Assembly: GCA_000165345.1 (NCBI GenBank)
Contig: CM000436.1
Location: 1,280,713-1,344,712, forward strand
Direction: 5' to 3'
Length of the DNA: 64,000 nt
In this document: positions 264-1,668 of the stretch, piece after piece
Layout: the number at the start of each line of letters is the position of its first letter
Numbering within the stretch: position 1 is the stretch's first letter
Program-made: the position numbers and the translations under genes
Notes under the pieces: generated by a model
What the model was told of the DNA's origin: nothing
The model's database searches: none
What the model saw: the letters and a program-made list of their open reading frames with translations, nothing else

Positions 264-1287
264 TTAAGGATAGCTTTTGCTTTTGTAAAAGTCAAAAATT
301 AATAATATCAATGCAGCTATGATGTTGAAGCACATCAAATAGAACTGATAACTGAAAATAATAGTAATATATGTTTGTTAACTTCTTGATAATATATTTT
401 TCTATTAATTCAAACTTACCCTCTGGCTCCATATGCTTCTTCCATCTTTTCTAAGTAAATCTTTGACTCATCCAGATAGTCAACTGCATCATTTGCATCT
501 GCTAATATTGTTGAACAAATCTCTGATTGCTCCTGTATTTTTGATGAGAAAAAGCTCATCAGAGATGAAATCTCGTGTAACTGGTTTTGAGACTCTCTTA
601 AAGCATCCAAGTCAGAAGTAAAATGATTAAGCAATTCTTGAGCGGCTTTCTCCATTTCTGGGGTTAATTCATCCATTCCTGGATCAAGATCCTGATCATG
701 ATCTAGACTTCCATCATATGAATTATAGCTTTTCTGATCCAAGCTAGAATAATCTATTCCAGCTAATTCTGAGCTAAGATTACTTTTTCTTTCCCTAGTT
801 TTAAACTTTTGACTCTTAATATACTGAGCTTCGAGCCTCTTAGCCATTCTGGATTGTGCTTGAGATGCTAGCTCTCCTAACAAAGTATAAATATTAGAAA
901 TTATCATTCTTCTATAAGGATACCTATTTTCATCTTCTTTATTGCTTTCTTCTTGAGTGTTCAATTCTTCTTCTAACTTTAACATTTTGCTCTGGCAAAA
1001 CTGAACCTTTTCTGACAAGGAAGAACATTTTTTTTCTTCATTATGTTCACTTTTTTTAGATATAATAGAATCCAAGTCCATTATATCCCCTTCATCAAGT
1101 TCTTTCTTCAATACAATTATATCACTACACTAATTTACTATTTAAACAAAAATCTCTAAAATCACTAATTTTAACTTACTATTTCGTTCACATCCTTCAT
1201 AAATTGTGAAATGCTAATATCAATCATCTCAAATTCCAGAGGGTTTGCCCCACTCAATCTTCTGAATTCCTGAGTTCGATCAAACAT
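264..1287 (-). CDS. Qa-SNARE syntaxin (Sed5/syntaxin-5-like), 3 exons: 1180-1287, 420-1129, 264-351; introns 1130-1179 (50 nt) and 352-419 (68 nt)
   Basis: ORF 416-1111 contains a canonical syntaxin SNARE motif (LHEISSLMSFFSSKIQEQSEICSTILADANDAVDYLDESKIYLEK, with the zero-layer Q) but has no Met start and no membrane anchor. An upstream ATG at 1287 opens MFDRTQEFRRLSGANPLEFEMIDISISQFMKDVNEI and ends at a GTAAGT donor at 1179, with an acceptor TTAG at 1131-1130 that is in frame. The ORF stop TAA at 416-418 sits inside a GGTAAGTTTGAA donor. That intron ends TATTTTCAG at 352, and the 88-nt terminal exon encodes G-YQFYLMCFNIIAALILLIFDFYKSKSYP-stop, a typical tail-anchor TM segment. Confidence 0.65.
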
Positions 1288-1668
1288 GTTTGCTGCTTTA
1301 GCTCTAAAAAAAAATAGCTGCTAGAGTATCAATGAATAACTATTTATTTCAAAAAGATTAAAATAATTTCAGTTAAAAATCATTAATGTGCTGGATTGTT
1401 ATTCAAACATTCATTATTTCTTCAAATTTATTCACACTTTTTTTCCAAAAAAAAAATTTTATTTTTTTTTTTATTAATTATTCGATACCACTATGCCGGT
1501 ATATAATAATATTCGATACCTAATATTTTAAATTTTTTTTTTTAATATGCATTGCATAAAAAAGTAAAAAAGATGAAATCGATTAATTTAATAATTAAGT
1601 TAAGTTTGTTTGGAAGTAATTCCCTATAATAGTAATTAAAAATAAGAATTAATTAACATAAGCAAAAA

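Follow-up and report, generated by a model that had tools for sequence, protein, structure and literature searches.

A predicted three-exon gene for a tail-anchored, syntaxin-18-like Qa-SNARE on chromosome 8 of Cryptosporidium parvum

Syntaxin-18 (Stx18) of mammals and TgStx18 of Toxoplasma have the role of the Qa-SNARE of the endoplasmic reticulum (ER) in Golgi-to-ER retrograde fusion, and their complex roles with Sec20, Use1 and Sec22 are known (PMC8406237). The Dsl1 (NRZ) tether, the partner of Stx18 elsewhere, is reported to be nearly absent from Apicomplexa (PMC3785458), a point in which the C. parvum protein described below would differ from the syntaxin-18 system. Here we analyse a gene that compares most closely with this family, located in a 64-kb stretch of Cryptosporidium parvum chromosome 8 (contig CM000436.1; AT-rich, 32% G+C), referred to below as the window. 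A cluster look-up and the sequences themselves identified the locus as cgd8_5170 (CPATCC_004396, CPHLJ_8g5170). We consider it probable, at roughly 85%, that cgd8_5170 is a three-exon gene coding for a tail-anchored protein of 301 amino acids (aa) which would serve as an ER Qa-SNARE of the syntaxin-18/Ufe1 type.

The gene lies on the minus strand, and its features are listed in window positions in Table 1. Between positions 264 and 1320 the list of open reading frames (ORFs) holds a single long frame on this strand (416-1111; TTG start, 231 aa). This was also the starting point of an initial annotation made from the DNA letters, which had supplied the missing ends of that frame from two further exons at 1287-1180 and 351-264. 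Both exons stood up to the analysis: exons 1, 2 and 3 joined by script gave a coding sequence of 906 nt with no internal stop and a 301-aa product ending in GYQFYLMCFNIIAALILLIFDFYKSKSYP, and the arrangement is conserved in ten species, as described below. The start ATG (1287-1285) is the first ATG downstream of an in-frame stop situated 11 codons upstream. The annotated stop of the long ORF, TAA at 418-416, makes up bases 2-4 of intron 2 and thus lies inside the donor, in concordance with the earlier proposal that this stop belongs to the 5' splice site GG/GTAAGT. As a phase-2 intron beginning with GTAAGT, intron 2 brings unspliced reading to a TAA at once. As to the splice junctions, GTAAGT donors were found at both introns as had been claimed, whereas a pyrimidine-rich acceptor could not be upheld for intron 1, the acceptor of which, TAAATAGTAAATTAG, is A/T-rich. 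Reading of the strand revealed no alternative acceptor with a usable open frame in either intron; the AG that follows position 352 (346-345) leads to a stop after two codons.

Table 1. Predicted features of the cgd8_5170 locus, in window positions
Feature	Position	Strand	Description
Exon 1	1287-1180	minus	108 nt, phase 0; MFDRTQEF...NEI, peptide MFDRTQEFRRLSGANPLEFEMIDISISQFMKDVNEI; GTAAGT directly after
Intron 1	1179-1130	minus	50 nt, GTAAGT...TTAG
Exon 2	1129-420	minus	710 nt; phase-2 end GG/GTAAGT; most of the predicted helical N-domain, disordered linker, SNARE motif
Intron 2	419-352	minus	68 nt, GTAAGTTTGAAT...TATTTTCAG; GTAAGT...TTTTCAG
Exon 3	351-264	minus	88 nt including TAA 266-264; completes codon G273, encodes YQFYLMCFNIIAALILLIFDFYKSKSYP
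N-peptide MFDRTQEFR	1261-1287	minus	putative SM-protein (Sly1-type) binding motif
Predicted three-helix N-terminal (Habc-like) region	785-1206	minus	approximately residues 28-151, spans intron 1
SNARE motif	443-607	minus	approximately residues 211-265; zero-layer Q237 (codon 529-527) in KIQEQSE
Predicted transmembrane tail anchor	285-344	minus	approximately residues 276-295, then 6-residue luminal tail KSKSYP

On the minus strand GTAAGT occurs six times in 64 kb, and two of these six occurrences fall exactly at both required exon ends. In the whole window, the hexamer was counted 16 times and is somewhat rarer than the 24.1 +/- 5.0 expected from dinucleotide-preserving shuffles, 96 out of 100 of which contained at least 16 copies. 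For exon 3, the 220 nt downstream of the donor were shuffled, and a hydrophobic tail of 20-45 aa after an in-phase AG was obtained in 1.3-4% of the trials. Taken alone, this result is suggestive for exon 3; the question is settled by the comparative data.

For the comparison, the gene was rebuilt at the orthologous loci of C. meleagridis, C. ubiquitum, Cryptosporidium chipmunk genotype I, C. canis, a Logan assembly, C. bovis, C. ryanae, C. serpentis and C. muris, which together with C. parvum make ten species. Both introns were present at the same position and in the same phase in all ten, from C. parvum to C. muris. Exon 1 measures 96-111 nt throughout, has the same end (NEI/GTAAGT or equivalent) and is followed by GT(A/G)AGT; exon 2 ends everywhere in a phase-2 donor (AG/GTAAGT, GTGAGT, GTATGT or GTACGT). 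Intron lengths vary from 46 to 106 nt (intron 1) and from 50 to 148 nt (intron 2), and exon 3 is 88 nt long in nine of the ten species. Divergence is more rapid in the introns than in the exons, with intron 2 being the least conserved segment: its identity to C. parvum is 0.39-0.69 outside C. meleagridis. The lowest value for intron 1, 0.41 in C. bovis, compares with 0.68 for exon 1 of the same species. Among the nine 88-nt copies of exon 3, all 29 third codon positions are variable, against 14 first and 11 second positions, and the pairwise differences at codon positions 1, 2 and 3 amount to 249, 213 and 585, respectively. As judged from this alignment, the substitution pattern is that of a translated exon under purifying selection, and the predicted three-exon, two-intron model is correct and holds genus-wide.

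The models deposited for this gene disagree with each other. An intronless form of 221 aa with an internal Met start is given for C. parvum Iowa II and IOWA-ATCC (CPATCC), C. hominis TU502 and C. tyzzeri; a form of 273 aa, in which exon 1 and intron 1 are included, for CPHLJ, CPCDC, C. hominis UKH1 and TU502_2012; and a form of 296 aa, with both introns and exon 3, for C. meleagridis UKMEL1 (POM83515.1). It should be added that the C. parvum re-annotation of 2022 comprised 1926 changes (PMC8744675), and that the IOWA-ATCC protein after this re-annotation is the 221-aa form in the retrieved record. The unspliced frame hits TAA, and ORF-based and one-intron models therefore end at GARG and lose the anchor; this applies to all models of 221 and 273 aa. 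That an intronless model would yield an anchorless SNARE had been foreseen in the initial annotation, which is borne out by the 221-aa models of Iowa II and CPATCC, and the one-intron models of 273 aa share this loss. Outside these sets, the anchor exon is missing from the deposited models of C. canis, C. ryanae, C. bovis, C. serpentis, C. muris and chipmunk genotype I, several of which also lack exon 1. The full-length orthologous proteins, once rebuilt, are 283-301 aa long.

The C. meleagridis protein is among the closest known counterparts of the product proposed here. POM83515.1 is an orthologue with 94% identity that has exactly the same two-intron structure and no difference in the exon 3 peptide; it ends in GYQFYLMCFNIIAALILLIFDFYKSKSYP and its gene spans 1009 nt (108+52+695+66+88). 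It differs in coming from another species and in its name, "putative integral membrane protein", which carries no SNARE or syntaxin label. The two-intron structure is thus not new to the genus, being on record for a sister species, a point on which the initial annotation was overstated. Neither does the presence of introns single the gene out, as had been argued from their rarity: of the C. parvum genes, 10.8% carry introns; those that do average 2.6 exons, and the mean intron length is about 99 nt (PMC4637869). Two short introns are thus what is usual for a gene of the intron-bearing class.

Were the deposited models of C. parvum and C. hominis right, the product would be a soluble, anchorless SNARE-like protein of 273 or 221 aa, and the hydrophobic frame downstream would be a chance feature of AT-rich DNA. 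Nine deposited or called models indeed end at, or just past, the stop equivalent to GARG, and the shuffles described above yielded a comparable tail in a small percentage of trials. Chance, however, does not account for an exon that is conserved in phase and peptide in ten species as far as C. muris with substitutions of the coding type, for a peptide homologous to the anchors of relatives outside Cryptosporidium (see below), or for the inclusion of exon 3 by the annotators of C. meleagridis. Moreover, the deposited C-termini are in conflict: the C. ubiquitum model cubi_03743 wrongly joins the syntaxin to the antisense of the convergent neighbour's final exon, and the models of C. canis and C. 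ryanae read on into the intron and carry spurious read-through C-termini, which makes three different spurious tails. We therefore regard an anchorless product as extremely unlikely.

A related explanation would have both forms made, with a regulated retention of intron 2 giving a soluble, inhibitory Qa-SNARE of 273 aa beside the anchored form of 301 aa. An in-frame stop directly follows the end of exon 2 in eight of the ten species, so retention would there give a clean truncation. Such a stop, however, arises automatically from a phase-2 intron that begins with GTAAGT or GTGAGT, and it is lost where the donor differs: in C. bovis the unspliced reading stops two codons later, and in C. ryanae it continues for about 60 codons. 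Since the immediate stop is not kept in these two species, we see no regulatory element in it; there is no other sign of regulation, and we hold a dual product to be very unlikely.

The membrane anchor of the 301-aa protein depends on the splicing of intron 2, as the initial annotation had stated. Residues 276-294, encoded by exon 3, form the only transmembrane candidate, with a Kyte-Doolittle 19-residue mean of 2.32; no other 19-residue segment exceeds 1.6, and the maximum elsewhere is 0.75. The anchor, present only with exon 3, starts 39 residues after the zero layer of the SNARE motif. Within that motif (KIQEQSE), E and Q are invariant in 21 of 21 aligned family members. At the other end of the protein, residues T5 and F8 of the N-peptide are invariant in the genus, and distant homologues start with M(D/E)RTxxF. 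The AlphaFold2 model of the C. meleagridis orthologue begins with a short helix at the N-terminus, followed by three further helices, a disordered linker, a long helix and a terminal helix (269-293); helices 28-48, 74-94 and 101-146 are predicted with a pLDDT (predicted local distance difference test) of 70-84. The modelled architecture fits the layout of a syntaxin.

The wider relationships of the protein became visible at the level of profiles. When the protein and two alignments served as queries, word-indexed searches returned only Cryptosporidium sequences, plus one homologue already present in the query alignment, and a profile restricted to the genus gave only sub-threshold matches to PDB sequences (a globin; VAMP2 with E 0.17). 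A profile built from the deposited Cryptosporidium sequences, run exhaustively with HMMER against 1.84 billion representatives (cut-off E<=1e-3), revealed 58 relatives outside the genus, mostly from alveolates, the named ones being Vitrella, dinoflagellates and Cardiosporidium. Full-length relatives share HR..VV..LY in the third helix and K(V/I).EQ.E in the SNARE motif, and their C-termini, SYRFYVVCWF....LL..D(F/W/Y).., match the exon 3 peptide in the alignment column by column. This alignment with alveolate anchors therefore supports independently that exon 3 is part of the protein. In Pfam, 30 of the 58 relatives matched SNARE and five matched Syntaxin-18_N (PF10496; cut-off 30.6 bits), with 58.4 bits for relative P0025 and 43.9 for relative P0042; Syntaxin-5_N and Syntaxin were matched by none. 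When the widened family profile was compared with PDB, the only natural proteins at a significant level were Qa-SNAREs, namely Stx17 (E 1.6e-5) and Stx1A (E 6.6e-5, positions 28-267), followed by Stx13, Sso1 and Stx7; the matches took in the SNARE motifs of all five, and in Stx1A they covered almost the entire protein. Homology of the cgd8_5170 product to Qa-SNAREs is thereby shown at the profile level.

Within the Qa-SNAREs, the initial annotation had assigned the protein to Sed5/syntaxin-5, which would make it, with the same gene structure, a Golgi Qa-SNARE of anterograde ER-to-Golgi traffic. The likeness is real as far as it goes: Sed5/syntaxin-5 is a Qa-SNARE of the same overall architecture, in agreement with the PDB matches above, and its Sly1-binding N-peptide has the same DRTxEF core as the DRTQEF contained in MFDRTQEF. 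The match of this N-peptide to Syntaxin-5_N (PF11416), however, reached only 10.9 bits against a cut-off of 16.6 and covered only seven residues (3-9), compared with 36.7 bits for human STX5 and 28.2 for Sed5. N-peptides of this kind are also found elsewhere among the syntaxins, the N-terminus of syntaxin-1A being MKDRTQEL, while human STX18 has DITLLF in place of DRTQEF. According to Yamaguchi et al. 2002, as cited in PMC4054776, Sly1 binds syntaxins of the Golgi as well as of the ER through an N-terminal peptide that is conserved, and an N-peptide of the DRTxEF type is therefore not diagnostic of syntaxin-5. The N-termini of Sed5 and Stx18 are themselves alike, Sed5 scoring 20.8 bits on Syntaxin-18_N.

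The two subfamilies were compared directly by local hmmsearch against five reference syntaxins, whose sequences were entered by hand and each of which was placed in the expected family by Pfam. With the Cryptosporidium-only profile, STX18 scored 32.4 bits, Sed5 7.3, STX1A 3.1, STX5 0.8 and Ufe1 -6.3, so that STX5 came second-lowest, above Ufe1 only. With the wider family profile the scores were 150.4 bits for STX18, 62.2 for STX5, 53.4 for Ufe1, 52.0 for Sed5 and 27.4 for STX1A. Without the exon 3 columns, STX18 fell from 32.4 to 12.1 bits and the other references gained nothing; the anchor is therefore specifically of the Stx18 kind, beyond mere hydrophobicity. In concordance with this, the anchor motif LL.(F/L)D(F/W/Y), or ..LL.LD[WFY].. 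as shared by STX18 and the cgd8_5170 product, is not found in STX5. Furthermore, Stx5 and Sed5 score 55-61 bits on Pfam SNARE, which the C. parvum protein does not match; human STX18, in the hand-entered version, likewise gave no Pfam SNARE match at E<=1e-3 while reaching 75 bits on Syntaxin-18_N. Failure on Pfam SNARE thus appears to characterise the Stx18 family and does not speak against SNARE identity.

With syntaxin-18/Ufe1, the cgd8_5170 product shares an N-peptide, a predicted helical N-domain, a linker, a Q-SNARE motif and a tail anchor in the same order, besides the best profile score among the references tested and the intermediate relatives that pass Syntaxin-18_N. It differs in that the Cryptosporidium sequences themselves are not matched by that Pfam family. 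On balance, the Sed5/syntaxin-5 label is probably wrong and should be replaced by syntaxin-18-like; an assignment to syntaxin-5 appears unlikely to us.

Several results weigh against the syntaxin-18-type Qa-SNARE proposed here. The assignment to the family is transitive, proceeding via profiles and intermediate relatives, and the direct comparison of STX18 with STX5 depends on the hand-entered reference sequences. Pfam SNARE (PF05739) and Syntaxin (PF00804) did not match the C. parvum protein at E<=10, for which reason the description of its Qa-SNARE motif as "textbook" was too strong; of the two checks that had been proposed for the 301-aa product, a PF05739 match and a transmembrane prediction, only the second gave a positive result. 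Searches with the spliced protein, the ten orthologues and N-terminal fragments gave no Pfam family at its cut-off, Syntaxin-18_N included. Among the ten orthologues there were one weak match to Syntaxin (0.026) and three to V-SNARE_C (0.016), all below the cut-offs. The AlphaFold2 model has no more than moderate confidence, its mean pLDDT being 60.7, and Foldseek searches against PDB ranked Sso1 and syntaxin-1 first, with matches to their Habc domains, but without significance (E >= 0.018). Finally, the exact product of 301 aa was not present in a collection of 15 billion proteins and a scan of metagenome contigs for the spliced junctions found none; these two observations also speak for the anchorless models discussed above.

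Once its short GT-AG introns of 50 and 68 nt are spliced out, the gene is predicted to yield a tail-anchored Qa-SNARE of 301 aa; if the syntaxin-18-type assignment is correct, this protein may be inserted post-translationally into the ER membrane by means of the exon 3 anchor. Its N-peptide may bind an SM protein of the Sly1 type. By analogy with Stx18, the protein could serve as the Qa-SNARE when retrograde carriers from the Golgi fuse with the ER. The retention of an Stx18 given the reported near-absence of Dsl1 is mildly interesting. A broader speculation is that Cryptosporidium, like other alveolates, has retained a strongly diverged Stx18-type ER Qa-SNARE, whose DRTxEF N-peptide resembles that of syntaxin-5, for a Golgi-to-ER fusion that is tether-independent or differently tethered, possibly with an anchorless inhibitory isoform made by retention of intron 2; we consider this scenario quite improbable.

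The reference sets of C. parvum (Iowa II, IOWA-ATCC), C. hominis and C. tyzzeri carry the gene as a "hypothetical protein" of 221-273 aa with no anchor, and inventories of SNAREs, tail-anchored proteins or ER-Golgi components of Cryptosporidium will miss or misclassify it. The literature search found no paper naming cgd8_5170 and none joining C. parvum with syntaxin 5, and the supplements of an apicomplexan SNARE survey contain no Cryptosporidium gene identifiers. The corrected 301-aa model, together with the corrections for eight other species, restores a complete putative Qa-SNARE and points to a syntaxin-18 identity, by which Cryptosporidium would gain a candidate for Golgi-to-ER fusion in the retrograde direction. 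The value of these results lies in annotation curation; their novelty is low, and the knowledge of SNAREs and of splicing is left unchanged.

Apart from cgd8_5170, some observations were made on its neighbours and on the remainder of the window. Downstream lies a convergent multi-exon gene for a protein of 185 aa with no Pfam match (positions 5072-6134 of L001), the last exon of which occupies positions 133-216 of the plus strand. It ends at 216, 47 nt from the syntaxin stop codon, and the two 3' untranslated regions must therefore overlap or be very short. A conserved stretch at 139-230 (minus strand), used in the C. ubiquitum model, was considered as a further syntaxin exon and rejected, as it is the antisense of that last exon. 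On the other side, a divergent protein-kinase gene (1669-3033, plus strand) has an intact ORF of 454 aa, the length it also has in C. meleagridis and C. ubiquitum; in the CPHLJ and CPCDC models of C. parvum it is given as 383 aa over a span of 1286 nt, which constitutes a second annotation discrepancy. Further along the plus strand, the stops of two long frames that follow one another, 36018-39173 and 39220-39747, overlap GTAAGTTTGAA donors at 39170 and 39744, and this arrangement indicates another putative multi-intron gene. Each of the three such donors in the window has the extended form G/GTAAGTTTGAA.

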